A stretch of 64,000 bases of DNA from a virus. The stretch is taken from the IMG/VR virus record IMGVR_UViG_3300025617_000006. One strand, given 5' to 3'. The notes under the pieces are model-generated. The model was not told where the DNA came from. It saw nothing but the letters and a program-made list of their open reading frames with translations, and ran no database searches. This document shows, in pieces, positions 12,654 to 31,127 of this stretch. Made by a program: the position numbers and the translations under genes. Each line of letters starts with the position of its first letter. The stretch's first letter is position 1.

Positions 12654-14065
12654 TGGCTCAACATTTTTATGACGGACAGATAAGAAGATATATTACTCAA
12701 ATGATTAGATTGATGAGTAATTTTTCTTATAAAAACGGCGACGGTACACTAACGCAAATTCCAGTTATGTACGGAGATATTACACGTCAAGTTGGTCACA
12801 TCTTACGAGATAATTCAGAGAATAAAGTTCCAAGTGCGCCTCGAATTGCATTATACATGACAGGACTAGAATTAGATCGTGACAGATTAGCCGATGCTAC
12901 GCATGTTAGTAAAGTGCATCTTAGAGAACGTGCATGGGATTCAGACGGTCAGGAATATTTAAATACACAAGGTAAGAATGTAACAGTTGAGAGGCTAATG
13001 CCAACTCCTTATACATTAAGTGTAAGTGCAGACATATGGTCGACTAATACTGATCAAAAATTACAAATTATGGAACAGATATTAATGCTGTTTAATCCAA
13101 GTTTAGAAATACAAACTACAGACAACTACGTAGACTGGACAAGTTTAAGCGTTGTTAACCTTGACGGAGTAACATGGAGTAGTCGAAGTATTCCAGCAGG
13201 TGCAGAAACCGAAATCGATGTAGGAACTTTACAATTTACTACACCCATCTATATTAGTCCGCCAGCAAAAGTTAAAAAACTTGGTGTTATTACTAATGTA
13301 ATTATGAGTATTTTTAACGAAGAAACTGGAAGTATTGATTTAGGACAATCAACACCGGAATTTAAACGTTATAGTAATGACACTGTGTATCAACAAGACG
13401 GCGAAGGTGTTGGAGAACGAAATGATGCCGATGCTCTTCAAGTAACTGGACACAAAAACTACGATCTATTAGTAATGGGCAACGAAGCACAACTAATTAG
13501 CAAGGGCGTAGTTGGAACAACACTATGGGACGGATATTTAGAAGCACTACCTGGAGAATTTACTGCTGGAGTTAGCCAACTACAATTAACTAGACAAGAT
13601 TTAAGTCAAAGTATTAACGGGTCAGTTGCAATTAATCCAAATGACGGTACAAAATTATCAATTACTTGGGATTCTGACACCATTCCTAGTGATACTGTTA
13701 TAACAGGAAGCACAGGAGATCGAAATAAGATTGATTATATTATCGATCCAACTAAAACTAATCCAACAAACATCAAATCGCCGGGTGCAAGAATATTACT
13801 ACTAGAAAGAATTGGCGATGCAGATAATGCAGACGGTGCTGATGCTTGGAAGAACACAGATAATTCAGACTTTGTAGCAAGTGCAAACGATATTATTGAA
13901 TGGACTGGCACAGAGTGGAATATTCTGTTTGATGCTAGTACTGAAGAAAATATCAAATACACTACTAACTTAAATACCGGAATTCAGTACAAATGGACTG
14001 GATCAGAATGGATATTATCATTCGAAGGCGAATATCGAAACGGAACGTGGCGCATACAGTTTTAA
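12653..14065 (+). CDS. gp15: Tail terminator / sheath stabiliser (gp15-like) with C-terminal extension
   Basis: HFYDGQIRRY, IPVMYG, PTPYTL, QIMEQILMLFNPSL motifs; TAATG coupling to gp14. Confidence 0.85.
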   Translation: MAQHFYDGQIRRYITQMIRLMSNFSYKNGDGTLTQIPVMYGDITRQVGHILRDNSENKVPSAPRIALYMTGLELDRDRLADATHVSKVHLRERAWDSDGQEYLNTQGKNVTVERLMPTPYTLSVSADIWSTNTDQKLQIMEQILMLFNPSLEIQTTDNYVDWTSLSVVNLDGVTWSSRSIPAGAETEIDVGTLQFTTPIYISPPAKVKKLGVITNVIMSIFNEETGSIDLGQSTPEFKRYSNDTVYQQDGEGVGERNDADALQVTGHKNYDLLVMGNEAQLISKGVVGTTLWDGYLEALPGEFTAGVSQLQLTRQDLSQSINGSVAINPNDGTKLSITWDSDTIPSDTVITGSTGDRNKIDYIIDPTKTNPTNIKSPGARILLLERIGDADNADGADAWKNTDNSDFVASANDIIEWTGTEWNILFDASTEENIKYTTNLNTGIQYKWTGSEWILSFEGEYRNGTWRIQF

Positions 14066-14077
14066 ATAACTATATGT

Positions 14078-14518
14078 ATGAGCCAGAAGATATCCTGTAG
14101 TGGTGCATTATTTTACGCACTAAATACCAAACGTTTCTTATTCTTACACCGTACACAATCAAAACAAAACAATGTTTGGGGACTTGTTGGTGGTAAAGGA
14201 AACACTGGTGAAAGCCCTATTAATATACTTCAGAGAGAGATTCAGGAAGAACTAGGATTTCAGCCTGAAATCTTAAAAACAATTCCATTAGAAACATTTG
14301 TTAGCACTGATGAAAAGTTTAATTTTCATACATACCTTACAGTTGTAAAAGAAGAATTTATTCCAAATTTAAATAACGAACATGACGGATATGCGTGGGC
14401 TAGTTTTAGTAAATGGCCAAAGCCGATTCACCAAGGTTTGCGTAATACATTACAAAACAAAACTAATGTTACTAAACTTGAAGCAGTATTTGAAGTTATT
14501 AATCTATTAGAGAATTAG
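14078..14518 (+). CDS. Nudix hydrolase
   Basis: WGLVGGK...GE......QREIQEELG Nudix box; LNNEHDGYAW. Confidence 0.85.
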   Translation: MSQKISCSGALFYALNTKRFLFLHRTQSKQNNVWGLVGGKGNTGESPINILQREIQEELGFQPEILKTIPLETFVSTDEKFNFHTYLTVVKEEFIPNLNNEHDGYAWASFSKWPKPIHQGLRNTLQNKTNVTKLEAVFEVINLLEN

Positions 14519-14520
14519 AA

Positions 14521-15663
14521 ATGAAAATATTAGTTATCGGCGATATAATTATCGACAAATATATATACGGTACAAGCACTCGGCTAAGTCCAGAGGCTCC
14601 AGTGCCAGTAGTTAGTCAAAAACGCACTGAAGAATCGTTAGGTGGCGCTGGACTTGTATACGAAAATCTTAAAAGCCTAGGTGTTGATGTTGAACTGTTT
14701 AACTATCAAGGTAATAACAGTGTTAAAACTCGAGTTATGTGCGACGGACATTATGTTACTCGTATTGATAATGATGTTTATGCTGACGGTGTTGAAATTC
14801 TTGAACGAATACAACGCATGAATTTTTCAGCCTATTCATATGTTATTCTAAGCGATTATAACAAAGGTGTTTTAGATCAATCATTAAAAATTATCGAGCA
14901 TCTTAATACATTCGGCTGTAAAGTTATTGTAGATCCAAAAGAACATGCTACACAATATGAAGGTGCATGGCTAGTAAAGCCTAATCATAAAGAGTTTAGC
15001 GACTTTGGGTTTATCCATTGGCAAAGCAACATTATCACAACTAATGCAGGTAACAATGTAATTGCAAAAATAGACGATAATGTATTTGAAGTACCTGTTG
15101 ATAACTTAGAAGTAACTGATGTTACAGGCGCAGGTGATTGCTTTATGGCTGGGTTTGTATACGGATTAACTAAAGAGTATAATTTTCAAAAGTGTTTAGA
15201 AATTGCTATTAAAGGCTCAACCAAAAGTGTAAAACATTCTGGTACGTATATACTGACACAACAAGACATAGAGGAAACTGTAGTCTTTACTAACGGTGTA
15301 TTTGACATCTTACACGAAGGACATTTTCAATTACTAAAATTTGCAAAATCAAAAGGAAATAAACTCGTAGTAGGCATTAATAGTGATGCTAGTACTAAGC
15401 GACTAAAAGGCGAAAGCCGGCCAATTAACGATCAACTGCAACGGCAGATAAATTTAAAATTATTACCCTGGGTTGACGATGTAATAATCTTCAACGAAGA
15501 CACTCCGTTAGAACTTATGAAACGAGTAAATCCTGACTTGCTCATTAAAGGCGGAGACTATACAATAGAAACAGTAGTTGGGCATGACTTATACCCTGTC
15601 GAACTTTTTCCTACTGTAGAAGGTAATTCTACATCAATGATTATAGAAAAAATTAAACAATGA
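14521..15663 (+). CDS. hldE: Bifunctional heptose-7-phosphate kinase / heptose-1-phosphate adenylyltransferase
   Basis: PfkB domain (RLSPEAPVPV, SDYNKG, VDPK, DVTGAGD) fused to a nucleotidyltransferase (TNGVFDILHEGH, GINSDAS, KGESRPIN, KGGDY). Confidence 0.92.
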   Translation: MKILVIGDIIIDKYIYGTSTRLSPEAPVPVVSQKRTEESLGGAGLVYENLKSLGVDVELFNYQGNNSVKTRVMCDGHYVTRIDNDVYADGVEILERIQRMNFSAYSYVILSDYNKGVLDQSLKIIEHLNTFGCKVIVDPKEHATQYEGAWLVKPNHKEFSDFGFIHWQSNIITTNAGNNVIAKIDDNVFEVPVDNLEVTDVTGAGDCFMAGFVYGLTKEYNFQKCLEIAIKGSTKSVKHSGTYILTQQDIEETVVFTNGVFDILHEGHFQLLKFAKSKGNKLVVGINSDASTKRLKGESRPINDQLQRQINLKLLPWVDDVIIFNEDTPLELMKRVNPDLLIKGGDYTIETVVGHDLYPVELFPTVEGNSTSMIIEKIKQ

Positions 15664-16484
15664 GAATATTAGTAACAGGACACGAAGGATTTATTGGAAA
15701 GAATCTCGCATCTTATTTGCAGTACAAAGGACATGACGTTGAAGGATGGGAATGGCAAGAGAATAAATTTCCAGATGCTCAACAATATGATAAAGTTATT
15801 CATCTAGGAGCAATAAGTTCAACAACTGAAACAGATATCGAAAAGGTTATGAAGCAAAACTATGAGTATACCATGAAACTTATAGAAATTTGTGATATGA
15901 TGGGTACTAGTATACAGTATGCTAGTTCAGCAAGCGTGTACGGTCAAGGAACTAACGGGTTTACTGAAGAATCTATGTGCAGTCCACAAAGCCCTTATGC
16001 TTGGAGTAAGTATCTTATTGATAGATGGGTTAAAGAATACCAAGATGACTTCAAAATCAACATCCAAGGATTTCGATATTTCAATGTATATGGTAATTTT
16101 GAAGATCATAAAGGCGATCAAGCAAGCCCAGTAACTAAATTTACTAAACAGGCAAAAGAAACTGGTAAAATTTATCTGTTTGAGAACAGCGATGCTTATC
16201 TACGTGATTTTGTTAGTGTACAAGATGTGTGCTTAGTACATGAGAAAATGTTGGAAATGGACATAAACGGTATTTTCAATGTAGGTACCGGTGTTGCAAG
16301 GTCTTTTAAGTCGATTGCTGATACTATTGCTAAAAAGTATAATGCCGAAGTTGTTGAAATTCCAATGCCTGACAAGTTAAAAGGCCAATACCAAGAATAT
16401 ACATGTGCCAACATGTCTAAAACACTGTCTACTATCGATCATACGTTTATTAGGCCCGAGGAATGGATTAATGACCAAGGATAA
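15660..16484 (+). CDS. hldD: ADP-L-glycero-D-manno-heptose 6-epimerase
   Basis: TGHEGFIG, HLGAISSTTE, YASSASVYG, YAWSK, FRYFNVYG..EDHKG, YQEYTCA. Confidence 0.9.
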   Translation: MRILVTGHEGFIGKNLASYLQYKGHDVEGWEWQENKFPDAQQYDKVIHLGAISSTTETDIEKVMKQNYEYTMKLIEICDMMGTSIQYASSASVYGQGTNGFTEESMCSPQSPYAWSKYLIDRWVKEYQDDFKINIQGFRYFNVYGNFEDHKGDQASPVTKFTKQAKETGKIYLFENSDAYLRDFVSVQDVCLVHEKMLEMDINGIFNVGTGVARSFKSIADTIAKKYNAEVVEIPMPDKLKGQYQEYTCANMSKTLSTIDHTFIRPEEWINDQG

Positions 16485-17172
16485 TTGCAAAGTCGAGTGG
16501 TGGAGTGTTGTACCAGGATTAACTAAAGTCGAACCTGTACAAACTGCTACCAAATTTTTGCCTCCCTGGTTTAAAAATATGCCACAGTTTTTGCAAGAAG
16601 ACAGTTTTCGTGACAAGGGTACATTAAAAAATTGCCCCGGATTTGTCGATTACTATAAAAATGCTTATGTTGTAACTATGTGGTGCGATTTTCACTTAAA
16701 AGTTACTAAAGATGATATAGCATGGCATTCAAGTAATGAAGATTTTACTATGAGTCTACACTACAATAACCAATTTAAAGATTATTTGCCTGAAAGTGCT
16801 AAAGATAAGTTTTTATGTGTTGCAAAAACCGATTGTCCGTGGCGTGTACGTACAAGTCCAGGCTGGGCAATGATGCAATTACCAATGTTTTATGATTTTA
16901 ATGAATATTTTGAATGCATGCCAGGGGTAACTCACACCGAATGGAGTCACCAGATTAATCAGCAACTACTAATTAAAAAAGAAGGTGAGTTTTTAATAGA
17001 AAAAGGCACACCTTTAGCAATGTATGTACCTATTAAACTTGCAGACCTCGAAACTACTGTACAAGACGAAGACGAAGACAAGTATCGTGCGAGTTTTGTC
17101 AGTAATATGATATTTCAAAGCAAATTTAAAGGCGCATATAAAAAATTTAGAGATAAATGGAGTAAAAAATGA
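16471..17172 (+). CDS. Hypothetical protein (KxCPG motif; C-terminal I.KGTPL motif)
   Basis: Start reassigned to MTKDNCK (16471), overlapping the hldD stop region; operonic with hldE/hldD. Confidence 0.55.
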   Translation: MTKDNCKVEWWSVVPGLTKVEPVQTATKFLPPWFKNMPQFLQEDSFRDKGTLKNCPGFVDYYKNAYVVTMWCDFHLKVTKDDIAWHSSNEDFTMSLHYNNQFKDYLPESAKDKFLCVAKTDCPWRVRTSPGWAMMQLPMFYDFNEYFECMPGVTHTEWSHQINQQLLIKKEGEFLIEKGTPLAMYVPIKLADLETTVQDEDEDKYRASFVSNMIFQSKFKGAYKKFRDKWSKK

Positions 17173-17573
17173 ATCGACTTGAAGGAAAAGTAGATAAAGG
17201 TTGGGGATATGAGTTAATTTGGGCAACTAATGACTTATACTGCGGTAAACTTATGGTATTTGAAAAAGCAGGAGCAAAATTTTCCATGCATTTCCATAAA
17301 GAGAAAGACGAAACCTGGTTTGTTAACGCAGGACGCTTTGAAGTTAAGTGGATTGACACTAAAGATGCTATGCTTTACAGTAAAGAACTTAAACCTGGAG
17401 ATGTTTGGCACAATCCTCCATTACAACCGCACCAATTAACCTGTCTCGAAGCCAATAGTAGTATCAGTGAAGTAAGTACTGCTGACTCAGTTGAAGACAA
17501 CTACCGTATTATCCCCGGTGACAGTCAAAAAGACGTAATTAGGAAAAATTCTCCGCCGCCAACAATGCCTTAG
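17169..17573 (+). CDS. Cupin-domain protein (sugar isomerase-like)
   Basis: KGWGYE, SMHFHKEKDETW, PLQPH, EVST cupin metal-binding motifs. Confidence 0.8.
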   Translation: MNRLEGKVDKGWGYELIWATNDLYCGKLMVFEKAGAKFSMHFHKEKDETWFVNAGRFEVKWIDTKDAMLYSKELKPGDVWHNPPLQPHQLTCLEANSSISEVSTADSVEDNYRIIPGDSQKDVIRKNSPPPTMP

Positions 17574-20500
17574 GCTTGCGCTTCTGACCAACGTACAATA
17601 ACGTTACCGTCAATATCAGCACCTGATGTTTTATACACGTTAATTGCTAGTACGTCTGGTCCATTCGGGAATGTTCCTCTACCACCTAGTGTAGTATTAG
17701 TTAATTCTTTAATGAATGACAGATCCAATGTCGACCTTTCTCCAGGTTGCGCAATAAACGAAAAGATAGTTTCGCCTGGCTGAGCAAACGGTGGTTGTGT
17801 AAAGTCAAACGTGATTTGTGTTGAACCTGCGGTAATAGCAGTAGCATTAGATGTTTGGTTAAACGTCACATCATAATATTCTGTTCCACCGTATGTTTCT
17901 AATCTAACTGATGATACCGCTGTACCTGCTGGGAATCTTGAATCACTAACAGTAGTACCTTGAATAACACCTGCTGAATCATATCCTGCTTTTTCAAAGA
18001 AGATATTGTTAGTTGGTGCATCTTTAAACTTCTTAGTAAGAACAATAGTTACATTTGAGTTTACAATGTCAGTATTTGGTCTAGCACTAGTAAAGATAAG
18101 TCTTAAACTTCCTAAACTTCTTGAACCATATGTATATGATGAAATATCAGTAATTGTAGTTCCTACAGGGAAGTAATTCCCTGATTGACTTTGTACTTCA
18201 AGACCAATTTCAAACAATGCTTGATTTGCTAGGTAAAAACTGTTTTGTACAAAGAAGTAGTTTCTTGAATTATCTAATGTATTATCCCAATTGGTATTAC
18301 CACTTCGATATCCTCTATCAACTGCTGTACATGTTGCGGTTAATGCCGCCTGAGTAGTAACTGCTGTTGTGACTGTTGTTGCACCTGAGTTCCAGTTAAC
18401 CGAACCTCCCGGAGCAATCTGTGCAAAACTCGGCTGTCCACCTTGTGCCAGTCCTGATAGTCCCTGCCAACCAACATCGCTTGGATTAAGTGGATAGTTT
18501 TGCGGGTTAAGAATACCTTCAATAACAATACCGCCGGTATCTGCATCTACTGGTTGATCTGTTGTAATTTCAAGACCTTCAAGTAGTAACTGCGCTCTGT
18601 TTAGTAGTTCTCTTTCGCCTAAGTCTCCAACAAGTGCATTACTAACACTAGGTGCAAGTCTTAATAGGAAGGAAGTGTTTCTAGTTGTTGAAATTTCAAC
18701 ACCTGTGGATTTATATGAGAACAAGTAACCACGATCTGAATCAAAGCCGCCGTCTGTAATAAACGCTGAACCCCAGTGTGAAATATTTGGTGAAGCAGTA
18801 TTACTTACTAGTACTACACCAGTGTTCCGTGTATGCTCTGTTGCTGGGCCGCCTGTGTATGTTCTAGTAGCGCCTGAAGCAAAGTTGGTCATACTTGCTG
18901 AACGTGTAATACCTGTTAAGTTTTTACCATCAACTCCGGTAAATCGAATCATTTCAGCATCAATATATACAATCCCGCCTTCGGGTGGGAAGAAAGATGC
19001 ATCTTGTAACGGAATAATAGTTTGTGTACTTGTAATATCACTTGCTAATTTATCGTTAGGACCTTCGTTTGTAATTTCGTAACGCACAGGCATGTTACCA
19101 GTACGCATAAACGCTTCTGTATTAATGTTTGAGTTACGCATTCTGTGACAGAACACAAAGTTACCATCGGCACCACGTAGCATATAGTCAATAAAACCAG
19201 CACCATACCATGAATACTGAATTCCTACCATCTGCATTTTTGATATGTCCATGTTATAACCGCTTGGACCTGTTCCATCCATTCTATCTCGGTTAAAATC
19301 TTTTTGCTCAGTTTTCTTATCTCTAACTAAACAAATTTTACTTGCTCTAACATCAGTTACTCCACGGAAGTCAGGTGTTAGATACATTGTTGTATTGTCA
19401 ACAACCTGTGATACAACGTGGGTCATGCCCTTAAGAACAATTCTATCACCTGCTTTTAATTGCTCTCTAAATCGTGTTCCAGTACCTGTACATGTATTTG
19501 AATCAACGTTAATACCAACAACTCCGGCTAACTGTAACGTAGCAGTTCTTTGTACTGCACTAAACTGCGTACCATCATACTCAAAGAAGATACCGTTTTG
19601 ATCATCAAACGCACCCGAGCGCACAGTTGCACCGTGGAACGTTTTAAGTGATACTTGACACTCTGATGTTAACTCAGGTGTAGTAGATCCTAATGCATTT
19701 TTTGCAACTATTTCAAATACGTTTTCGTTATTAATTGCTGATACAGTATATTCATCGTTATATCCAACTGTTGACACACCGATTAGTTTAATAATACCAC
19801 CAACTTGTAAACCATGTTCTGTTTCGTCGGTTTCAACTGTGATAATACTGCCAACCGCAGTACCATCTGCTGTAATATCTAAAATATTATAACTTGGTGC
19901 AAATAGCGCACCAGTTGTATACATAATACCCTTACCTGACTGGTAACGAATGTACTTTTTACTTTGACGAATTGCTTGCGCACCATGTTGCGGACCGCCT
20001 GTACCTAACTGCACACCACCGTCATATGGTCTATGAATAAAGAATGAGTCTGGCCTTGGATACACGTTACCAATCACCGGGTCGTCTCCCGGACTACCGT
20101 CGCCTGCTGTATCAATAGTTCCTGGTGCTCTACACTGGTATTCTAGTTGTGTAAGACTTGGAACTGCTGTTGCACTAAACGGACCTGCCGCTAAGTTATG
20201 ATCATTGTTGCCGTCATCTGATGCAATAGTAATTGCAAACGAATCTCCTGGTACTAAACCATGCGGTGTTTGGAATGTAACTCTAATACTTGCTAACGCT
20301 TCATATGTAACCACAGTAGCCTGTTCTATTGGACCAGTTGTTTGTTCAGTCATTGTTACAGAACTATATAAGTCAAGTGTTTCGCCAGTTACTGCTGTAC
20401 CACTTATATCAATACCTAAAAACTCTCCTTCGGTTGATTCAACTGTACAACGTAATGTTAAGTCGTTTGTTGGTGTATCTCCACCTAGTTGATCACCTGG

Positions 20501-23500
20501 TATTACAATTCTGTCACCTACTTTATAGGCTGTACCAGTATCTGATGCAAAAACAATTGTGTATGCTCCGCCATCCCTAGTTACATTAAATGTTGCATTT
20601 GATCCTGCGTTAGGATCGTTGTTACCTATTTGCTCATTATATGTTCCGGATCCTGTAGCACCAGTACCAGTAAAGGTAAAGCCGCTGATTCCGCCGTCTT
20701 CTGCTTGGACACTTGTAATAGTAATTACAACATCGTTGGCCGGTGTTGCACCACTAAGGTCAGTTCCTGATATGCTAATAGTCTGATCTGGACCATAATT
20801 TTGTCCTGCACTTTCAGAAGTAATAGTATATGCGCCGCCGGATAAATCAATTTGGAATGTTGCTCCGCTACCAATTAAGTTAGTACCATTAGTAACTTCA
20901 GGATAAGATCTAGTGTTAACTGCTGTGCCTGCTTCTGTTGTGCCTGTTACTGCACCGTTAACATCAACTGATGAAATTGTTATAGTTAGGTTGTTAGTAC
21001 CGTCGGCACCGCCCAGTTCTGATCCTAAAATTGTAAACGTTTCTGCTGCCAAGTAGCCAGTACCACCGCTTGTTACGTTTACTGTATAGTCTGTTCCGAT
21101 TCTTTGGACATTAAGATCAAACCCGCTACCTGAAACTGTTGTCGAAGTATATGCTGGAGACGGATAACTTACATCTGCGTCAACTGCTGTTCCTGTTGCA
21201 TCAACACTTGTAATTGACCCGCCTGCACCAACTGCTGTAACACTCAACGTAGCATCATTAGTTACACTCTGGCCTCCTAGATCAAAGCCGTCAATTACAA
21301 TTTGGTCTCCAACAACATACCCTGATGAAGTATCTGGAGATGTAACTGACGCAGTGTAAACATTATTAGTATATGTAATATCAAAAACAGGATCAGTACC
21401 AAGACCACCGCTAGTAGTTCCATTAACTCCAAAGAATGACCCTTCACCGTCAAACCCTGTTCCTGAGAACGAAAATTCATCAATTTCGCCGCCGCTAATA
21501 ATAGTATCAACAATAATTCTTAAATCATTAACTCCGTCTACGCCGCCTAGACTTCCGCCGCTTATGACAATGTTATCACCTACTTTAAAGTCTTGGCCTG
21601 TTTGATTAATGTCAACAGTATATACACCAGCAGTTCTAGTAACATCAAATGTTGCACCGTTACCAATTGACGAATCGTTTTCTCCTGTTAAACCAGTATA
21701 CTCAACTCTGTTACCTACCAATATTCTTGAAGTTGCTGTACTTAATGTTAAATCATTACCAGTAACGTTAGTTACAAATGCCGCCGTACCGTCTCCACGA
21801 TCAAGTGCCGCGCCAACTATTACTGATGAAGCATCCTCAACTGTTACCGAAAACGACCCTTGTGCAACGTCTTGTACTAATACCGGAGTTCCAATAATTC
21901 CGCCATCGCCTGTAGTACCTGTTACCTGAGAACCTAAAGGAATTTCTCCGCCGGGTTCTTGTAACGGAGCACCTAACTCTGGAGGAGTTCCTTGGATCGG
22001 TAATCTATTTTCACCAGTTTCAACACCCAGTGAAAGACTAAATGATCCGTTTGAACCTTGTGTAGTAACATCAAATGTTGGTGTATCACCTTGTATTGCC
22101 GCTCCTGTATAAAAAGCCGCTTGTCTTAAAATTGTATAAAATGTTTCTAAAGTTGTATTTGCTGATACTCCAACTTTTGCTTTAGCATAGTATGTAAATG
22201 TACTGTTATCGACAACAGTGTTTACAATAAATGTACCTTCTGCACGACCGTTGCCTTGAACACTACCGTCGAGCCCGCGGATTGTAATTGGATTACCTGC
22301 GGTAACGCCATGCGGTCCAACTGTTTCTACAGTAATTAATGATTGACCAATGCCGTCACTGCCAGCCGATGCATCAGTTAATACTTTACTAACTGTTGTA
22401 TCCGTTCCTGGAACTTCATAAGTTGAAGGATATCCCCGCATAGTACCAATCGCCTGCCACTTAGTAGGCTGTAGTCCGTACTCAAAGTCAGCATCAAGCA
22501 TTGATACTGCATTTGCAACACGCTGACGTTCAATTGCATCAGTACCAAAATCATAAGGTCTAACTTTTAAATCACCTTGATCAACAAAAATTTGTAAAGT
22601 ATCATTTTCGGACCAAATCTTAGGCTCGTCTTTAACTGGTAAGAATGATAAACCGTTTTCAATAACTGTTGTAATAATTGCAACTAATTCTGTTACCCGT
22701 GTTGCAGTTCCTAAATCAGCATCACCTCCTAAAAAGTATTGTGTAGTTTCAACTGGTGATTGTTGCTTAGTTGGATATACTGCTTTAGTTAAAATATAAT
22801 TATTGATTAGATCTCGCAAGAAGTTTTTTGCCGCAATTTCTTGTTCCCTAGTTCCGTCAATTTGTGGAGTTGGGCCTTTCCAATATGCTTTTGCAGTATC
22901 AACAGTATGTGCATTGCCGCCGTACTGCATATCTGCAATCATTGAATCAATATTGTATCCTGTGTCTCTTTCACATTTTGGACCATTATATGTATATCCG
23001 TCCCAAATACTTCCTACGTCTGCATTTTCTACTTGATCTGCAATCCATGCACGTACTTCGTCTTTAAGAAATTCTTTGTTTCTAGCAATAATGTTTCTAG
23101 AACTTTCTAAATATTCTTCATTAGTTGTATCTGTTTCAAACAATACTTGTGTAATAGTATCAGTAGTTTCAAGAAACTTTTGGAAGTAAAAAAACGTTGG
23201 AGTAAATTCTATTGACTCGTATGTATACTTTACATCTGCACCTTTACTTGGGTCACTAAAATTAAATAGTACTGTATTATTTGAAGTATCAGTAATTAAT
23301 AATAAATTGTCTTGTGTTACCTTTGTAGGGAAAATTGCTCTACTAATCTCAGCACGGTGAAAATCAGGCATTGCATCTAATCCGTTAAGAATAACTGCTC
23401 CAATAGTATTTGTAAGAACTTTATCTACTTGTGCCGATGAGTTAGTTTCAGCAATATATTCTGAATTAATTACTTGTGTGGTCACTGCAGGCGCTTGATT

Positions 23501-24196: not shown

Positions 24197-24202
24197 CTGT
24201 CC

Positions 24203-25240
24203 TTATACTCCTAATGCAATAGCAAGTGCTGTTGCTGTATTATCCACATATTGTTTGTTAGTTAAATGTTGACTAGTCACTGGTGCATTTTTTCCTGTTG
24301 CTTGCGTAAAGGTTGCCGCCTCTGGAACGGTGTTTCCTATCACTGTACTATTTAACCCATTTTCAGCATTCAATGCTAAGAACGAAGCGTCTTGTGGAGT
24401 GCTTTGTCCTATTGTAAGATTATCAATTGACCCTGATAGTCCTGAGTCAATTATTAATGTTCCAGTACCTGTTGGAGATATAGTAACGTTTCGATCGTCC
24501 GGTGTAATTGTAGTAGTGTCACTAACTGATAATGTAAGTGCATTTACATACATATTACTTAATGTACCAGCGCCTGCTGGATTAATAGTCACCGTGCCGT
24601 AAGCGCCTGTTGGTGAAAGGACAATTTCAGCATCTTGGCCTCGCAATGTAGCATCACCAATAACATTTAAACTACTAAAACTACCAACACCAGTAATTGT
24701 TGGATCCGCAGTTACAATACTACCAACAACAGAAGCGTCACCTGTACCATACCATAATTGTGTTGGTGCTAACGCATCTAGATCAATAAAGATAATTCCA
24801 ACTGTTTTACCTTGAGCCGCTTCTCCCTCGGCCAAAACATCTCCGGCATCTGTTAGTTTGTAACTTACACCTTCAGAGTATAATACAACTGGAGTTCCTT
24901 CAATTAGCGTAGTTGAGTTTCCGGTTTCATCCTCAATCCAAAAGTTCCATGTTAAAAAGTTGAAACTATTTAAATTAATAGAATAAGTTTCGCCTCTTGT
25001 TAATCTTAAAGTTGGGTTAGGTGCTAGTGTATCAGTATCAGAAACAAATATACCATCTTGTGTAAAAACTGCCTGTTCACCTGCGCCTAATTCATTAAAA
25101 TATAGTCTACCTTCAATTGTAACTTGTTCTTCTTCAATGTAGGACAGGCTTCGTACGGTAACGTTTCCTGCATCATCTACAGCAAAGCCAGGACTTTTAA
25201 ATCCATGTTGTGATTCAAACGGGTTGTACGTTACTGCCAT
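24203..25240 (-). CDS. Virion fibre-type protein
   Basis: L.L.P.GTG.. repeats, HLTNKQYVD, C-terminal ALAIALGV. Confidence 0.6.
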   Translation of the reverse strand: MAVTYNPFESQHGFKSPGFAVDDAGNVTVRSLSYIEEEQVTIEGRLYFNELGAGEQAVFTQDGIFVSDTDTLAPNPTLRLTRGETYSINLNSFNFLTWNFWIEDETGNSTTLIEGTPVVLYSEGVSYKLTDAGDVLAEGEAAQGKTVGIIFIDLDALAPTQLWYGTGDASVVGSIVTADPTITGVGSFSSLNVIGDATLRGQDAEIVLSPTGAYGTVTINPAGAGTLSNMYVNALTLSVSDTTTITPDDRNVTISPTGTGTLIIDSGLSGSIDNLTIGQSTPQDASFLALNAENGLNSTVIGNTVPEAATFTQATGKNAPVTSQHLTNKQYVDNTATALAIALGV

Positions 25241-25262
25241 CTAATGCTCCAATTACACATAT

Positions 25263-25682
25263 TTATGCTGGTACTAAAACGTTTTGAGTTTGGAAATAAT
25301 TAGCACTGAAAACAATTTTTGCACCACGTCCTGGTGCAGAATCATCAAGCGGTTTAGCATTAGCAATAATATTTACATAACTGTCATTAACTGTAGCCGA
25401 CAAATCAATAATTTCATTTCCTAAATTTGATCTACCGTAAACTGTTAATTCAGCAGTACTAGGTCCTGCTACTACTAAACATTTAATAATTTCTTTTTGG
25501 AATGTTCCAAGGTCTGCAACCATTGTATACTCTGCGGCACAAAAATCGCCTACAAGCCAACGATCAACAACAGTATCTTCTGTTATTTTTTTCCAGGGTC
25601 CATTATAACTTAGGTTAGCACCGTTTTTCATTAAAACAGTGTTCTTTAAACCTTTGCCAAAGAATTTCGCAATATTAAACAT
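25263..25682 (-). CDS. Hypothetical (probable structural beta-sandwich) protein
   Basis: 139 aa, preceded by GATAAATA and an AGAGG Shine-Dalgarno. Confidence 0.5.
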   Translation of the reverse strand: MFNIAKFFGKGLKNTVLMKNGANLSYNGPWKKITEDTVVDRWLVGDFCAAEYTMVADLGTFQKEIIKCLVVAGPSTAELTVYGRSNLGNEIIDLSATVNDSYVNIIANAKPLDDSAPGRGAKIVFSANYFQTQNVLVPA

Positions 25683-25719
25683 CTTAGTCCTCTTTGTAGT
25701 ATTTATCGCCTAAGAGGAT

Positions 25720-27534
25720 TTAATTTTTAACAGTAATCAGTTTTGAGTATTCTGGCAAATATAAGTATTCTACATCACTCTTAGCGAGTGTTTTTACTGC
25801 ATCATCTAATGTTTCTACTAAAGGATCCCCACCTAAATTAAAACTAGTATTAAATACCATAGGAATACCTGTTTTATCTTTAAATGCTTTAATAAGATCA
25901 TAGTAGTGTTTGTTTTGCTCTTGGTTAACTGTCTGAATACGACATGAACCGTCTACGTGAATAATACTAGGAATCTTTTCTTCAATGCCTGGTTGACAGC
26001 GCACTGCATACATCATTGTAGGAGACGATTTCATTCCTCTCAAATCAAACCACTCATGCACATCTTCTTCTAAAATACTACCTGCAAATGGACGGAAGTA
26101 TTCTCTACGTTTTACTTCGTTAACATGATCTTTGCCGTTTGGATCTGTTGGATCATACATAAAACTTCTATTGCCCAATGCACGTGGACCATTTTCTGAT
26201 TGGCCTTGAAAAATTGATACAATATTTCGAGATGCCATTAGTTCAACTACATCATTGTGTGTTGCATCAGTAACTTCGGCTTCGTACTTCTCTACTGTTT
26301 TAGTAATTTCGTCATTAGTATAACAGTATGATGGTCCGCTATATAATGTTTCTTTTTGTGGAAGTACAGTACAATCCTCAGTGATCAATCGATGCTGTAA
26401 GAATGCCGCGCCCATAGCAGTACCGGCATCATTTGAAACTGGTTCTACATAGATTTCAATACCAGTACCTTTAAGTTGTTCTAAATAGTAATAGTTTGCA
26501 ACACAGTTTAATCCGTATCCTCCGCTGATTACTACTTTCTTTTTACCAGTCATTTCAACTGCTTTAAAAATTAATTTAAGGACTTGTTCTTGAGTTTGTG
26601 TTTGACATGCATATGCCATCTTGCGTCTATTTTCTAAAGTTGTAACATCTTCACTTTGGCCTTGAAGATCTCTTAACTGTTCGAAATAGTTACGATTAAC
26701 ATGCGCACCGTTTGGATATGTAGGAATAATTACGTTTCTATTTGATAATGCGCTTGTTTGATTATCTGTAAACAATTGCGGATACGAATCGTCCTTTTCG
26801 CCATAAGGGAATAGTCCCATAGTTTTACCTGCTTCAATAAAACTAAAACCGCAATAGTCTGTTACTGCTTCATATGTTTTTACAATACCTGCTGTTTCAC
26901 TGATAACAACCTGTGGAATAGTATTGCCTTCTTCGCCAAAGAATCCGCCATCAAAGTTTTGAAACTCGCCGCCTACTAACGGTCCTCTAGTGCCTAGATG
27001 CTTATAAACAGTTTTAAAATTTCCTGGATATCCGCAATCAATAATACTTTCTGTTTCCCACAATGTAGTTGCAGGCTCGTATTCTCCGTTTAACTGTGCA
27101 TCAAAGAATGTTCCAGCACCGTCAACAATAAGTGCTACAGCATCGTCAAATCCAGAATTATAAAAACTTAATGCCGCATGAAGTTTATGATGGAAATAAC
27201 TATAGTCAATTACTTGAGGATGATTCGGCAATAGTTTAGCATCTCTGTCAATTAATCCTAATTTACGTGCAAGTCCGGTATACACATCGTCCCCAGTAAA
27301 GTCAACTTTACCTGCTGTTTCATTTAAACTTTGTGTATGTGCTACGACTAGATAATCTAACTTATCAGTGTAATCGAGAATCTTAACCATTGATGCAAAC
27401 GGTCCGCCGTCGTACTTATGTCGGCTTAGTCTTTCTTCTTCAATGGAGAAAACTACTTCTCCGTCTTTTAAAAGACACACGCCGCCGTTGTGTCCTCTAG
27501 CAATCCCGGCAATCCAAACTGGTGGTTTTTTCAT
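25720..27534 (-). CDS. O-carbamoyltransferase (NodU/CmcH/TobZ family)
   Basis: EEERLSRHK, HHKLHA, VDGAG, GKTMGL, GGYGLNCVAN, NDAGTAMG, GPRALGNRS, KRREYFRPFA, HVDGSCRIQT, NTSFN. Confidence 0.92.
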   Translation of the reverse strand: MKKPPVWIAGIARGHNGGVCLLKDGEVVFSIEEERLSRHKYDGGPFASMVKILDYTDKLDYLVVAHTQSLNETAGKVDFTGDDVYTGLARKLGLIDRDAKLLPNHPQVIDYSYFHHKLHAALSFYNSGFDDAVALIVDGAGTFFDAQLNGEYEPATTLWETESIIDCGYPGNFKTVYKHLGTRGPLVGGEFQNFDGGFFGEEGNTIPQVVISETAGIVKTYEAVTDYCGFSFIEAGKTMGLFPYGEKDDSYPQLFTDNQTSALSNRNVIIPTYPNGAHVNRNYFEQLRDLQGQSEDVTTLENRRKMAYACQTQTQEQVLKLIFKAVEMTGKKKVVISGGYGLNCVANYYYLEQLKGTGIEIYVEPVSNDAGTAMGAAFLQHRLITEDCTVLPQKETLYSGPSYCYTNDEITKTVEKYEAEVTDATHNDVVELMASRNIVSIFQGQSENGPRALGNRSFMYDPTDPNGKDHVNEVKRREYFRPFAGSILEEDVHEWFDLRGMKSSPTMMYAVRCQPGIEEKIPSIIHVDGSCRIQTVNQEQNKHYYDLIKAFKDKTGIPMVFNTSFNLGGDPLVETLDDAVKTLAKSDVEYLYLPEYSKLITVKN

Positions 27535-27535
27535 A

Positions 27536-28429
27536 TTAAAATCCTACATATCCTATATGTTTATAATCGACTATTTCGTCTAAAATGTGTTCTTCAAATC
27601 CGATAAGATCACTATATGACTCTTTTAGTTTATTAAGTTTTTTCATTATACTATATTGTTTATCGTTATTTTTGCTAGTGATGCCTAAACTTGGACGGAC
27701 AACTTCATTAAGATAGTCAAAATGGTGCCAATGACTAGGATGTAGTTCTGTCCATTCTTTTTTAGACGTCGGGTCTACAAATTTATAAATTTTATCTGTA
27801 TTACGCCAAGCAAATAATCCTAATGGTTCTAACCATTTAGACTTATCTATATTATTATATACTTTTAATTTTGGATTGTCAACATATATGTCACTACTTT
27901 TGTGTGTTGTTTCTCCGAATCCAGGAGTATCGGGCATATCTGTGCCTAACTTATTCATGTCTCCGATTGATAACATTCTATACTGACATCCGATACTTTC
28001 AAGTAGTCCTTGCGTTAAAATAATGTTGTTTTGGCCATGCATAAAATAACTGTCTTCGTCCCAAAACGTATTAATCCAATTGTCACTATAACAAATTTCT
28101 CTATTCATATAATTGAATATACTGCCCTTGGTTTTCCAACCAGTATTATCTGTATTCCGAATTGGATCGCCGCGACTTTGATCAAAGTGTGCTGATTTAA
28201 AAGTATGCCAATCATTTCGAGTGTTTGTACTCCATTGTACAAGTACTACATCGTCTTTAGTAAAGTTGTTCCGTGCATGACATTCAGCAACTCGTTGTGC
28301 TATTGCACGATTTCCTAATCCTGGAAATCCCCAGTTTTCATAAGAATTAAATTCATAACCAAAAAAGTCTGCATACGTGGGCCATGCATACATTGTAAAA
28401 CTACAACCAAATGTGAATAATCTGCTCAT
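27536..28429 (-). CDS. SGNH/GDSL-like protein, paralog 1
   Basis: N-terminal FGCSFT (GxS), N.G..G.GN, C-terminal HP...H. Confidence 0.55.
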   Translation of the reverse strand: MSRLFTFGCSFTMYAWPTYADFFGYEFNSYENWGFPGLGNRAIAQRVAECHARNNFTKDDVVLVQWSTNTRNDWHTFKSAHFDQSRGDPIRNTDNTGWKTKGSIFNYMNREICYSDNWINTFWDEDSYFMHGQNNIILTQGLLESIGCQYRMLSIGDMNKLGTDMPDTPGFGETTHKSSDIYVDNPKLKVYNNIDKSKWLEPLGLFAWRNTDKIYKFVDPTSKKEWTELHPSHWHHFDYLNEVVRPSLGITSKNNDKQYSIMKKLNKLKESYSDLIGFEEHILDEIVDYKHIGYVGF

Positions 28430-29316
28430 TAAAACCCCCTATAAACAGGTTGATGATTTACTGCTGTACAAACTTCTTCTTGAAAAGTTAAAAAATTAGA
28501 CTCTTTTATCTTAATTTTTTCAATAACATCACTTACAGATACTTTATAATTACTAAGATCAATTTTTAAATTTACAACATTTTCTGCATAATCTAAATGT
28601 TGCTTATGACTAGGATGCACTTCTAACCATGATCCTTGATCGCTTTCAAACTCGTAACTGTCATTACTGTTTGCCCAACTATATGTTCCAATAGGAGTTA
28701 ACCAATTTTCATGTTCTAACACATTTTTATAAATTTCAAATTCAGGTTTGCTTTTAAAAATATCATCGTGATCAGAAATATTTTCATCGTGTGCATTTGG
28801 AATATCAGTACATAGTTTTTTAAAATCTCCAATGCTAGTCATTTTCCAAGTACAGTTTGTACTAGTAAGAAGTCCTTGTGTTAGCATCATATCATTCAAA
28901 TTATACATTACATAACTATGCTCATCCCAGAAAGTACTAACCCACTGATTATCATATATGTACTGCCTATTACTAGAATTAAAAATACTTCCTTGAGTTT
29001 TCCACCCTACATTATGATTATTTCTAAACCATACATGCAAGTAACTATTAGGATCAAACTGCATACTTTCAAATGTATGCCAGTCATTTCTAATATGTGT
29101 ACTCCATTGTACAAGTACTACATCGTCTTCAGTGAAGTTATTTTTAATATGACATTCAGCAACCCGTTCAGCAATTGCACGATTGCCTAGTCCCGGAAAG
29201 GCCCAGTTTTCGTAAACGTCAAAATGCTCGCCTAGAATGTCTGCATATGTAGGCCATGCATACATTGTAAAACTACAACCAAAGGCAAATAGTCTACGCT
29301 TTTTCTTTTGGTTCAC
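28429..29316 (-). CDS. SGNH/GDSL-like protein, paralog 2
   Basis: Same motifs as 27536..28429; clear tandem paralog. Confidence 0.55.
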   Translation of the reverse strand: MNQKKKRRLFAFGCSFTMYAWPTYADILGEHFDVYENWAFPGLGNRAIAERVAECHIKNNFTEDDVVLVQWSTHIRNDWHTFESMQFDPNSYLHVWFRNNHNVGWKTQGSIFNSSNRQYIYDNQWVSTFWDEHSYVMYNLNDMMLTQGLLTSTNCTWKMTSIGDFKKLCTDIPNAHDENISDHDDIFKSKPEFEIYKNVLEHENWLTPIGTYSWANSNDSYEFESDQGSWLEVHPSHKQHLDYAENVVNLKIDLSNYKVSVSDVIEKIKIKESNFLTFQEEVCTAVNHQPVYRGF

Positions 29317-30265
29317 CAGGATTCTTGCCTTTTTTAACCATATTATTTACAGACTCTACAATTACATCTTCAATTTTACTATTCATTACCATAATACCTT
29401 CATTGGATCTATCTGAATGTTCGTCCATTGTAATGCGAATTGGAGAATATACTCTTGCACCTTCTCCCATGTCTAAAATATGATGCTTACGTTCTTTAGG
29501 ATAAGAAATATTTTCTTTAAATGTTGACCCAACAACAACTGTTGCAGTTTGTTCTAACGCATATGCAATATGCTGACCGACACTATCACAACCTAAGAAA
29601 TGATCTGCTTGACTAATAATCCCTGCCCAATATCTTAAATCGATATTTTGCGGAATAGCAACAGGTTGTTTAACACCATGTTTTTGAAACTCAATAGCAA
29701 TTTCACTCATAAAAATAATGCCATAATTTTTACTTAGTTTGTTGACAATGTTGATTACACTTTCGGCTTCAAAACTTCTTCCACTCGGATCAACTATCAT
29801 TCCATTTTCGTGAATTACTCCACGTCCAAATGGTTGGAATACAATTACTTTACTTTTGCCTGTTTTTTCTTTAACTTCATCAACTAGTTTTTTACCAGTC
29901 ATTAATTCTTGTGTACTTAATTTAATAGTTGGCTTTTGTAAATCTCTTACACCTTTGTTATTAATTTCAATATCATAACACTGTGATAGATTTGCTAGTT
30001 GATTATAGTACTCAAATACTCTATATGGTTCAGGACTTACTAGTTCCATATCTTTAAGTTTATCTTCAAACAAATTTTTATGAAACACATCGTATGCTTT
30101 TTTATCTAATACAGGGTGTCCTTTAAAAAAGTCTGTGCCGCCTTCGCATACTAAAATGAAGTCGTCGTCTGGGTTTTCTTCGTGATATTTTTCTAGTGCA
30201 GGGATAGAGCATACTACTCTGCCGGCGCCGCCATTAATAAAAAAGGCTGTATTTCGTTTTGACAT
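29294..30265 (-). CDS. GT-B glycosyltransferase, GT9 (heptosyltransferase)-like
   Basis: N-terminal GGAGR..CSIPAL (equivalent to GIGD), VIVFQPFG, and IISQADHFLGCDSVGQHIAYAL matching the GT9 DSG..HLA.A motif. Confidence 0.7.
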   Translation of the reverse strand: MSKRNTAFFINGGAGRVVCSIPALEKYHEENPDDDFILVCEGGTDFFKGHPVLDKKAYDVFHKNLFEDKLKDMELVSPEPYRVFEYYNQLANLSQCYDIEINNKGVRDLQKPTIKLSTQELMTGKKLVDEVKEKTGKSKVIVFQPFGRGVIHENGMIVDPSGRSFEAESVINIVNKLSKNYGIIFMSEIAIEFQKHGVKQPVAIPQNIDLRYWAGIISQADHFLGCDSVGQHIAYALEQTATVVVGSTFKENISYPKERKHHILDMGEGARVYSPIRITMDEHSDRSNEGIMVMNSKIEDVIVESVNNMVKKGKNPGEPKEKA

Positions 30266-30296
30266 TATTTTATATTCCTTTGTTTCAAATACTTAT

Positions 30297-31127
30297 TTAC
30301 GGTTGAGGGTTACTATGCTCAGGTGTGACATAGTCCCAATAAAAGTGCTGTTGCTCTGTTCTAGGTACTTGTACAACCCATTCGCCATTTACTACTACAC
30401 CGCTTGGACTGCTAGTAGGTAAATGCCTATTTTCTCCAAATTTGTCACAACAACTATCTACAGTAATAATAGGAATTTGATATTGTAAACTCATCATCCG
30501 TAAATGAACTTCATGCCAGTCCATCCATATACCGTCTTGACTATTTCCCCTATCTCCGTTTGTGCTGTGTAAGATAAGATCTACTTGATGAATGCTTGCT
30601 AATAATGGTAAACTTGGTGCATTGAATCTAAAACCGTTGCCCCAAAGATCATTACAAATCATTCCTGTAGTGCGTACTTCGTCGAGATAATGTGTTTTAG
30701 TTGTACCTGGAGGATCTGCTAATACTTGATCCCAACTGTGATGTGGAGCATCTTCTCCACCAACAATATATTGTTTGTTTGTTGCGCCTAATAACTCGCC
30801 TTGTTTATCATAATAGCGTATTTGGTTGCGTCTAATTGTGCCACGATGTTCAATGTCAACCCATAATGTTCCTAGTGCAATGCCCATGCCTTTTGTGTTT
30901 GCATACGAAACTACTTCGTATGTTGCCTTAGCAATATCAGACATTCCATTCGCTGGAACTAAATCAAAGTTTGGAAAATATCCTGATAGTGAACCTTCAG
31001 GAGTAAGCAACCAGTCGCAATTATTTGATGCGGCCCAGTCGATTGCTTTTAGAATCGCTTTTTTATTTTCTTCTAATTCTTGTGTAACGGGTAGTTGTGC
31101 GCCCGCAAACCTAACTTTTTTGCTCAT
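30297..31127 (-). CDS. Carbon-nitrogen hydrolase (nitrilase superfamily)
   Basis: Glu-Lys-Cys triad in TPEG, NKQ, ICNDLW; AQL..., SPSGVV. Confidence 0.85.
   Translation of the reverse strand: MSKKVRFAGAQLPVTQELEENKKAILKAIDWAASNNCDWLLTPEGSLSGYFPNFDLVPANGMSDIAKATYEVVSYANTKGMGIALGTLWVDIEHRGTIRRNQIRYYDKQGELLGATNKQYIVGGEDAPHHSWDQVLADPPGTTKTHYLDEVRTTGMICNDLWGNGFRFNAPSLPLLASIHQVDLILHSTNGDRGNSQDGIWMDWHEVHLRMMSLQYQIPIITVDSCCDKFGENRHLPTSSPSGVVVNGEWVVQVPRTEQQHFYWDYVTPEHSNPQP

Follow-up and report, generated by a model that had tools for sequence, protein, structure and literature searches.

Sugar genes in the neck and tail-fibre region of an uncultured jumbo phage: a candidate system for virion decoration with carbamoylated heptose

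Why should a bacteriophage carry genes for activated heptose and for sugar carbamoylation among those for its neck and tail fibres? The question is raised by a 64,000-nt stretch of DNA from an uncultured phage, IMG/VR virus record IMGVR_UViG_3300025617_000006 (hereafter the window), which covers the structural region of a T4-superfamily phage, with terminase, sheath, tube, neck, baseplate, fibre and major head protein genes. The sugar genes form an island where a plus-strand neck operon (gp14-gp15-Nudix) converges on a minus-strand tail-fibre operon, the junction lying at 17570 (Table 1). An original prediction, made from the bare sequence, had hldE, hldD, a cupin gene and a Nudix gene following gp14-gp15 on the same strand with minimal gaps, and genes for a GT9-like transferase, two SGNH-like proteins, a NodU/CmcH carbamoyltransferase and a nitrilase-family enzyme among fibre genes behind TAAATA motifs; all of these genes were recovered in their predicted places. 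The answer that we favour, with a probability of roughly 45%, is that the encoded enzymes decorate the virion itself, the acceptor being a phage fibre or adhesin protein encoded beside them; gene identities, folds, conserved motifs, co-occurrence, purifying selection and late-type motifs are documented below, while the donor sugar, the sequence of reactions and most of all the acceptor are what we infer.

The two halves of the island travel together. Loci from relatives were fetched via the glycosyltransferase (GT) gene (39), via hldE (80, eight contigs being in both sets) and via gp15 (80, an unbiased sample). The GT- and hldE-fetched loci share a common start of gp14, gp15, Nudix, hldE, hldD and cupin genes, usually followed by a large fibre gene and the genes for proteins of 345 and 139 amino acids (aa), which are missing in some, and then by the carbamoyltransferase gene, zero to two SGNH-like genes and the GT gene. 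Every hldE contig that reaches far enough also has the carbamoyltransferase gene, the GT gene or both, and the GT gene is present in all four hldE-positive contigs that were searched whole. The large fibre gene is missing from loci L051, L078, L080, L106 and L118-L121, where the carbamoyltransferase and GT genes come directly after the cupin gene, and in the cyanophages P-SSM2 and S-CAM3 the genes for GT, carbamoyltransferase, hldE, gmhA, cupin and hldD are contiguous between fibre genes and neck genes. One subclade of the gp15-fetched sample has gp15 and Nudix without hldE and hldD; there, the GT gene was not found in any of five contigs, nor hldE or the carbamoyltransferase gene in any of the four searched for them. 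The two of these contigs that extend furthest (G006 and G008) reach homologues of the distal fibre genes, and they also lack the SGNH-like, 345-aa, 139-aa, assembly-like and Cys-rich genes. Likewise, the complete genome of Vibrio phage 2.275.O (349 kb) contains gp15 and Nudix, and searches of it for hldE, GT and carbamoyltransferase found none. Co-occurrence in relatives, the absence of which would have counted against the original prediction, is thus seen as joint presence and absence across the GT-, hldE- and gp15-fetched loci; by this pattern the HldE-HldD-cupin and the GT9-like/SGNH-like/carbamoyltransferase cassettes are functionally linked, with few independent losses sampled. The ratio of non-synonymous to synonymous substitution rates (dN/dS) against the closest relative is 0.04-0.18 for all module genes (0.16 for the 345-aa gene and 0.04 for the 139-aa gene). 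Such purifying selection argues against the possibility of ‘stuffer DNA’ that was raised for the cyanophage cassette (PMC3037559).

By its proteins, the phage is a PA5oct/2.275.O-like jumbo myovirus. The major head protein shares 68-71% of its residues with the counterparts in Vibrio phage 2.275.O, Sinorhizobium phage Phosso and Pseudomonas phage PA5oct, and the closest cultured gp15 proteins are those of PA5oct, Atu_ph07, Phosso and Vibrio phage 2.275.O, with about 30-35% identity to the gp15 of 2.275.O, Phosso and PA5oct. When 10 kb of the window was compared by megablast with 50,697 phage records, nothing matched; at the DNA level, then, the phage has no close relative in culture. The genome size can be put at about 350 kb, since CheckV rates a related IMG/VR fragment of 122.6 kb as 35% complete.

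What sugar could such a phage activate? HldE retains its two-domain architecture of PfkB and cytidylyltransferase domains, with the motifs GGAG, DVTGAGD, HEGH and NSTS, and also matches TIGR02198 (E 3e-50) and TIGR02199 (E 5e-45). All three of its models stay below their equivalog cut-offs, the NCBIfam one at 271 bits versus 521, because the kinase domain is shortened by about 70 residues. HldD is 40% identical to the E. coli enzyme and conserves GxxGxxG, the SSAS motif and YxxxK; its TIGR02197 score of 247.2 bits falls just short of the cut-off (274.6), the Rossmann insert is shortened, and the NADP-binding region has a 27-residue deletion. Both genes encode intact-looking enzymes. The hldE gene is only 33-47% identical to that of the nearest relatives, whose flanking genes are 76-88% identical, and 63-71% identical to hldE from a more distant subclade, so it looks as if hldE was replaced within the island.

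The earlier steps of the pathway are another matter. A tblastn search of the window with the relatives' gmhA and gmhB homologues detected neither gene, in line with what had been reported from the bare sequence, and gmhA (PF13580) was not found either in five related fragments of 90-123 kb or in a 335-kb contig (described below), all from incomplete genomes. A GmhB-like HAD phosphatase gene (TIGR00213, E 8e-25) follows the cupin gene in 63 related loci, which do not include the window or its own subclade, and gmhA occurs only in cyanophage-type loci. Without GmhA and GmhB the window alone cannot make ADP-heptose; the earlier claim that the phage makes its own activated heptose therefore stands as far as intact-looking HldE and HldD are concerned, and goes too far for the window by itself. 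The cupin, a constant partner of hldE and hldD, is homologous to the cyanophage ‘cysteine dioxygenase’ gene T4-GC 307 (37-39% identical). Its predicted metal site, HxH...E...H, is kept in most heptose-positive phages, and in the homologue from the heptose-negative locus L197 (8623-8985) only one of the four predicted ligands survives, the others being changed from H to I, E to K and H to T. The cupin profile drew only generic metal-cupin (oxalate decarboxylase) matches from the PDB. The protein probably tailors or isomerises the sugar; the idea that it substitutes for GmhA is weakened by the cyanophages, which carry both gmhA and cupin genes.

Which enzyme would then transfer the heptose? The candidate, described beforehand as a GT9-like transferase, does have the GT9 fold, but its sequence scores stay under the GT9 thresholds and the catalytic Asp is missing. 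It scores E 0.18 with PF01075 (11.5 bits versus 22) and E 4e-4 with TIGR02201 (19.5 versus 170.2), and its family profile gave only chance matches among PDB sequences, so a fold search was needed. The AlphaFold2 model, with a predicted local distance difference test (pLDDT) score of 83.5, retrieved 3tov, WaaF, WaaC and TibC in Foldseek (E 4e-10 to 4e-7), and VIA-align gave Z values of 22.6 for Veillonella 3tov, 20.2 for WaaF, 18.7 for WaaC and 18.4 for TibC, versus 12.6 or less for other GT-B families. The donor-binding motif (D227, S228, G230, H232 and G246-S247-T248) is invariant and aligns with ‘DTGLSH...GPT’ of WaaC and with WaaF. At the catalytic site, ‘MGDV’ of WaaC, containing D13, and ‘VGDM’ of WaaF align in MAFFT with ‘AGRV’, which places Arg16 at the position of the Asp. 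Arg16 is invariant in 19 sequences, and a motif scan of the full-length proteins among the best 150 representatives found Arg in 73 of 88, Lys in two and Asp in none. E41, E79 and D98 are also invariant. The N-terminal (acceptor) domain is not basic, with an isoelectric point of 6.3 versus 9.7-10 in WaaF and WaaC. No cysteine occurs among the invariant or near-invariant columns, and thus none of the TibC/AAH cysteine cluster (iron finger); the model aligns to TibC from residue 91 of the latter onward and has no N-terminal extension.

The family profile collects 721 clusters at E <= 1e-3 among 1.84 billion cluster representatives, and members were found only in viral contigs and in contigs of metagenome-assembled genomes (MAGs) of mixed phyla. 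In a genome collection, the family is confined to 11 MAG contigs from unrelated phyla. One of these, PBPT01000016.1 (335,231 bp, loci L210 and L227), was placed in a ‘Candidatus Neomarinimicrobiota’ MAG and represents a relative of the window phage that is nearly complete; the other ten (Chitinophagales, Methanobacteriota, Flavobacteriales, Verrucomicrobiales and others) also seem to be phage DNA that was mis-binned, since the phyla are unrelated and the 335-kb contig is clearly related to the window phage. A further Arg-type member with the GT9 fold, 26% identical and 244 aa long, is gp066 of Vibrio virus vB_VspP_SBP1 (locus L228, 8998-9732); it has the motifs GGLGRV, EPY and CDT..HIA and is flanked on either side by a tail-fibre gene in the 78-kb genome of this N4-like podovirus, which has no hldE. 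We regard the protein as a member of a separate GT9-fold family that is restricted to viruses and may work by a chemistry unlike that of the known heptosyltransferases; that ADP-heptose is its donor we infer from its co-occurrence with hldE and hldD.

A family-wide invariant Arg in place of the catalytic Asp raises the question of whether this protein is an enzyme at all. It might instead help in fibre assembly, or be a structural or lectin-like component that does no more than bind a nucleotide sugar, as in plant NDH complexes, while the heptose pathway and the carbamoyltransferase serve another step. GT9-fold chains of chloroplast NDH-PSI complexes match the model as well as WaaC does (Z 18.5-18.6), and the SBP1 homologue is shortened and has fibre genes, but no sugar genes, around it. 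We nevertheless hold a non-catalytic role to be decidedly doubtful, given the invariant donor-binding motif (D-S-x-G-x-H...G-S-T), the strict pairing of the GT gene with those for a sugar carbamoyltransferase and for ADP-heptose synthesis, and the presence of E41, E79 or D98, any of which could serve as catalytic base.

The NodU/CmcH/TobZ-type carbamoyltransferase contains the Kae1-like N-terminal and YrdC-like C-terminal domains, both above the Pfam cut-offs (PF02543, 91.6 bits with a cut-off of 24; PF16861, 193 with a cut-off of 27). It remains below the NodU equivalog cut-off (153 versus 1000) and is 47-49% identical to the ‘Nol-like carbamoyltransferase’ of P-SSM2 and S-CAM3. Its closest solved chains are 7xb6, NovN, GdmN and TobZ (E 1e-54 to 1e-41), of which NovN, GdmN and TobZ tailor antibiotics, and natural products containing heptose are made from sedoheptulose-7-phosphate via GmhA/HldE homologues. 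The module might then make a free heptoside, a small molecule resembling a secondary metabolite, instead of decorating a macromolecule. There is, however, no gene for a scaffold-forming enzyme, transporter, export or resistance nearby, and the module is constantly found among fibre genes in three phage lineages, which leaves this explanation very improbable.

Another conceivable target of a phage carbamoyltransferase and GT is DNA, through action on hydroxymethyl-pyrimidines that would yield, for instance, 5-carbamoyloxymethylcytosine or a base bearing a sugar. The GT-B fold is shared by the DNA glucosyltransferases of T4. A phage NodU-type carbamoyltransferase does make 5-carbamoyloxymethylcytosine (PMC8670742), and phage GTs hypermodify DNA according to Pyle 2024, as cited in PMC12619734. 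The carbamoyltransferases that act on 5-hydroxymethylcytosine nevertheless adjoin thymidylate-synthase homologues and deaminases (PMC8670742), whereas here the neighbours are fibre and sugar genes in the structural and not the replication module; moreover, no PF00303 homologue was found on the 335-kb relative contig, the sole match in that MAG being on a different contig. Hypermodification of DNA is accordingly hard to credit.

Two further types of enzyme could tailor the sugar. The SGNH-fold paralogues match no Pfam model, and their family profile gave only chance matches to PDB sequences, so that here too a fold search was needed. All top Foldseek matches of the AlphaFold2 model (pLDDT 78.5) were GDSL/SGNH hydrolases, with E-values from 5e-4 and template modelling (TM) scores of 0.4-0.6. 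An FGCSFT motif stands in place of GDSL, the Asp of which is replaced by Cys; the invariant residues S10 (in FGCSF), G37/G39-N40 and H230 fit a nucleophilic Ser, an oxyanion Gly/Asn and a C-terminal His. The pair is predicted to act as a sugar O-acyl esterase or transferase, and its copy number in relatives is zero, one or two. In the nitrilase-superfamily protein, the Glu-Lys-Cys triad (E44 in TPEG, K118, and C158 in ICND) is invariant in five sequences, and the best solved relatives are N-carbamoyl-D-amino-acid hydrolases (E 1e-4). It is an accessory gene, found in seven of the 39 GT-bearing loci, the seven closest only.

When would these genes be expressed? TAAATA occurs within 50 nt upstream of 22 of 50 genes, versus a mean of 1.3 (maximum 6) at random positions in 2000 draws. 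The motif, often ATAAATA, lies 11-50 nt before start codons and is about 16 times commoner there than at random positions; the genes bearing it include those for the GT9-like, nitrilase, 139-aa, 345-aa and Nudix proteins. The exact T4 late box TATAAATA is not enriched in the window, with 3 sites versus 7.6 expected. TAAATA is late-promoter-like, and the motif suggests late timing.

Taken together, decoration of the virion could proceed as follows. HldE and HldD would boost the supply of ADP-L-glycero-beta-D-manno-heptose, assisted by the cupin, with GmhA and GmhB supplied by the host or from elsewhere in the phage genome of about 350 kb. The soluble GT9-fold transferase would bind ADP-heptose via its conserved C-terminal motif and move heptose onto the acceptor, and the NodU-type enzyme would O-carbamoylate the sugar, as proposed for WapO on HepII of the Pseudomonas core. 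The SGNH-fold paralogues would add or remove an acyl group, and the nitrilase-type amidase, in the window's subclade only, would trim a C-N bond. The modification would take place late and in the cytoplasm, before or during fibre assembly, and would tune receptor binding, stability or shielding. There are precedents for the parts of this scheme: phage-encoded virion glycosylation (Freeman et al. 2023, PMC10527164, as cited in PMC12619734), the heptosylation of adhesins by TibC/AAH, which are cytoplasmic GT9-fold enzymes (PMC4358343), and the NodU-type enzyme WapO, thought to carbamoylate heptose (HepII) in the Pseudomonas core (PMC8005017).

The acceptor could also be sought in the host envelope, and this is the main alternative, although we rate it as rather unlikely. 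Carbamoylated, acylated heptose would be placed on the core of the host lipopolysaccharide (LPS), the O-antigen, the capsule or another surface glycan, so as to block superinfection or prevent the loss of progeny on cell debris. LPS core synthesis is the role of all characterised HldE/HldD relatives, of most GT9 enzymes and of WapO (PMC8005017), and the same genes in cyano- and pelagimyophages have been interpreted along these lines (PMC7029224, PMC3037559). Reliance on host GmhA/GmhB also implies a heptose-making host, and soluble enzymes could reach the LPS core, which is assembled on the cytoplasmic side of the inner membrane. Several observations point instead to a virion acceptor. All of the enzymes are soluble, as no signal peptide or membrane/hydrophobic segment was found in any module enzyme. 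Their genes lie behind late-type TAAATA motifs within a late structural operon, and not among early genes. The GT family is limited to viral and apparently mis-binned phage contigs, and the Arg-type GT stands among tail-fibre genes in Kyanoviridae, in the window's jumbo lineage and in Vibrio schitoviruses, even in a podovirus of 78 kb. The GT lacks the catalytic Asp and its N-terminal domain is not basic, unlike those of WaaC and WaaF. Cyanobacterial LPS contains neither 3-deoxy-D-manno-oct-2-ulosonic acid (Kdo) nor heptose (PMC4515613); hence the cyanophage GT orthologues (50-60% identical) cannot use the classical GT9 acceptor in their hosts.

Two more observations that favour a virion acceptor come from the neighbourhood of the module. 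First, the island co-varies with Gly/Cys-rich adhesin-like genes and their assembly partners. Three genes for proteins of about 240 aa, each with 23-24 Cys and about 19% Gly, are interleaved beyond the nitrilase gene with two tail-fibre-assembly-like genes, a set (31172-35106) that resembles alternative tips of an adhesin along with their chaperones; two giant fibre genes come next. The Gly/Cys-rich genes adjoin the module in cyanophage loci, where homologues were found by local tblastn without the low-complexity filter, lie directly upstream of the GT gene in L121, and are missing together with the assembly-like genes and the module in heptose-negative relatives. These proteins are candidate acceptors. 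Ser/Thr-rich fibres, the acceptors first proposed, did not survive inspection, as the window fibres contain 16-21% Ser+Thr, which is ordinary for fibres. Second, heptose-negative relatives carry a subtilase and prolyl 4-hydroxylase (P4H)-type oxygenases, which are protein-modifying enzymes, at the locus, and this suggests a locus devoted to protein tailoring. In L197 (IMGVR_UViG_3300017952_000058, 9241-16798), which has no heptose island, the place is occupied by a subtilase gene (PF00082) and at least two genes for P4H-type 2-oxoglutarate (2OG)-Fe(II) oxygenases (PF13640). Several unknown open reading frames, most of about 200 aa, are also found there, after gp15, Nudix and a cupin-like gene.

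Several points weigh against decoration of the virion. No glycan is known from the virion proteins of this family, no acceptor motif was found, and the fibres have the unremarkable Ser+Thr content just given. The GT lacks the Asp of all characterised GT9 enzymes and may not be a conventional heptosyltransferase, or any transferase. Co-variation with the adhesin-like genes is drawn from two negative contigs and one cultured phage, and could reflect replacement of a whole block. Late timing is read from the motif, gmhA and gmhB are missing from the window itself, and the published view is that these are genes for modification of the host LPS or O-chain (PMC7029224, PMC3037559). A bolder form of the proposal, speculative and unlikely as it is, would make the Arg-type GT9-fold family a new class of protein glycosyltransferase that attaches carbamoyl-heptose to an acceptor such as the Gly/Cys-rich adhesin tips or a different fibre protein of marine phages; heptosylated virions would then be a widespread determinant of host range in the ocean. 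Its mechanism would do without an Asp base, for instance if the attack came from an anionic nucleophile, be it a Cys thiolate or a carboxylate that the Arg holds in place.

The remaining genes of the region delimit the module. The Nudix gene had been counted as part of the sugar system, but it comes immediately after gp15 also in Vibrio phage 2.275.O and in PA5oct-like Pseudomonas phages, all without hldE, GT and carbamoyltransferase genes; by this pairing in heptose-free relatives it is a backbone gene of the phage group and probably no member of the module. Between hldD and the cupin gene lies a gene missing from the original list, which encodes a phrog_7084 protein and has a probable true start near 16471, the Atlas sequence beginning at residue 23. 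The protein is limited to the window's own subclade (55-87% identity). The slot is variable, being occupied by a PF13759 2OG-Fe(II) oxygenase gene in the 335-kb relative; that the phrog_7084 protein is a diverged form of this oxygenase is unsupported (BLASTP E 2.6). With this gene included, the plus strand reads gp14-like, gp15, Nudix, HldE, HldD, phrog_7084 and cupin, with gaps of -80 to 12 nt. Upstream from 17570 on the minus strand come the genes for the phrog_5838 protein, the 345-aa and 139-aa proteins, the carbamoyltransferase, the two paralogues of about 296 aa, the GT9-like protein and the CN_hydrolase, followed by the adhesin-like and assembly-like genes; across the named genes of both strands, gaps range from -80 to 44 nt. 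The phrog_5838 gene (6.6 kb) separates the two enzyme cassettes. The 345-aa and 139-aa proteins match no Pfam or PHROG family, and their genes adjoin the carbamoyltransferase gene in nearly all GT-bearing loci.

Table 1. Genes of the island and its surroundings in the window, with the matches or features by which they were assigned.
Feature	Position	Strand	Basis
gp14-like neck gene (backbone anchor of the island)	11454-12653	+	phrog_11591, E 6e-93
gp15 tail-sheath stabiliser (backbone anchor of the island)	12653-14065	+	PF16724, E 3e-26
Nudix hydrolase	14078-14518	+	PF00293, E 1e-14
HldE, bifunctional heptose-7-phosphate kinase/heptose-1-phosphate adenylyltransferase	14521-15663	+	NF008454, E 1.5e-80, both domains
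HldD, ADP-glycero-manno-heptose 6-epimerase	15660-16484	+	TIGR02197, E 2e-73
phrog_7084 protein, 255 aa	16405-17172	+	phrog_7084, E 5e-40; weak DUF6065 match (PF19541, E 0.035)
Small metal-binding cupin	17169-17573	+	PF07883, E 2e-7; TIGR04366 (WbuC-type cupin), E 2e-4
phrog_5838 virion structural/fibre protein, 2208 aa	17570-24196	-	phrog_5838 ‘virion structural protein’, E 1e-241
Gly/Ser/Thr-rich fibre-like protein, 345 aa, virus-only	24203-25240	-	Conserved C-terminal motif TNKQYVD...ALAIALG
139-aa protein, virus-only	25263-25682	-	Atlas neighbours all viral hypothetical proteins
NodU/CmcH/TobZ-type O-carbamoyltransferase	25720-27534	-	PF16861, E 3e-57; PF02543, E 9e-26
SGNH-fold paralogue pair, 297 and 295 aa	27536-28429, 28429-29316	-	Predicted fold; 49% identical to each other
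GT9-like protein, 323 aa	29294-30265	-	phrog_8954, E 2e-152; motif NGGAGRV
Nitrilase-superfamily C-N hydrolase (CN_hydrolase)	30297-31127	-	PF00795, E 3e-10, 40.3 bits (cut-off 23.2)
Tail-fibre-assembly-like proteins (two)	31172-32131, 33629-34354	-	phrog_9740/phrog_4912, PF16778; interleaved with the Gly/Cys-rich proteins
Gly/Cys-rich proteins (three), about 240 aa	32147-32869, 32885-33625, 34375-35106	-	phrog_4205

How does the island compare with known systems? The gene set itself is not new, having been listed as cyanophage “LPS genes” since 2005-2010. Sullivan et al. (PMC3037559) list T4-GC 304, 305, 307 and 308 among ‘LPS genes’ that occur together and whose function is unknown, and host-recognition clusters of pelagi- and cyanomyophages hold rfaE and glycosyltransferase genes (PMC7029224). 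The homologous cassette of cyanomyoviruses (T4-GC 302-308 in P-SSM2; also in S-SSM7, S-CAM1, S-CAM3 and P-SSM5; PMC3037559) shares with the window the GT9-like protein (50-60% identical), the carbamoyltransferase (47-49%), the heptose kinase/adenylyltransferase (32-34%), the epimerase (42-45%) and the cupin (37-39%), as well as the location between tail-fibre and neck genes beside phrog_4205-like and phrog_5838-like structural genes. The window differs in its phage lineage, in having a fused hldE and no gmhA, in the splitting of its halves by the 6.6-kb fibre gene, and in the addition of the SGNH-fold paralogues, the nitrilase and the phrog_7084 gene.

With LPS inner-core heptosylation (HldE, HldD, WaaC, WaaF), the island shares the donor pathway and the transferase fold (Z 18.7-20.2), and with the Pseudomonas core and its HepII 7-O-carbamoyltransferase WapO it shares the pairing of heptose with a NodU-type carbamoyltransferase (PMC8005017). 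Unlike WaaC and WaaF, the phage GT has Arg for Asp, fails the thresholds of the GT9 hidden Markov models and has a non-basic N-terminal domain; unlike the LPS core system, its family is virus-only and sits in a fibre operon, with orthologues in phages whose cyanobacterial hosts lack a Kdo/heptose core. For fibre decoration, TibC/AAH with TibA/AIDA-I (PMC4358343) provides a working analogy, having the GT9 fold (Z 18.4) and decorating an adjacently encoded adhesin by means of ADP-heptose. The phage GT departs from it in lacking the conserved iron-finger cysteines, the Asp base and the extra N-terminal region; the candidate acceptors are unrelated, and heptosylation of protein by the phage GT is a proposal. 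Phage GTs encoded beside structural genes also modify virion proteins in mycobacteriophages (Freeman et al. 2023), although the GT families and sugars differ, the targets there are the C-termini of capsid and tail-tube proteins, and neither a phage-encoded sugar-nucleotide pathway nor carbamoylation is known to be part of that system. What is new here is the module in the PA5oct/2.275.O-like jumbo lineage, the co-absence test, the family-wide Arg-for-Asp substitution and the schitovirus homologue, together with the GmhB-like member, the hldE replacement and the exclusion of Nudix from the module.

If the target is the host envelope, the module is an ordinary, though conserved, auxiliary gene set. 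If the acceptor is instead a fibre or adhesin, it would be the first case of a phage virion that is heptosylated and carbamoylated. It would also mean a new form of GT9 catalysis and a further level at which host range is controlled in very abundant sea phages (thousands of protein clusters), and would explain the unexplained “LPS genes” of model cyanophages. Since cultured carriers exist (P-SSM2, S-SSM7, S-CAM1 and S-CAM3), the question of the acceptor is directly testable.

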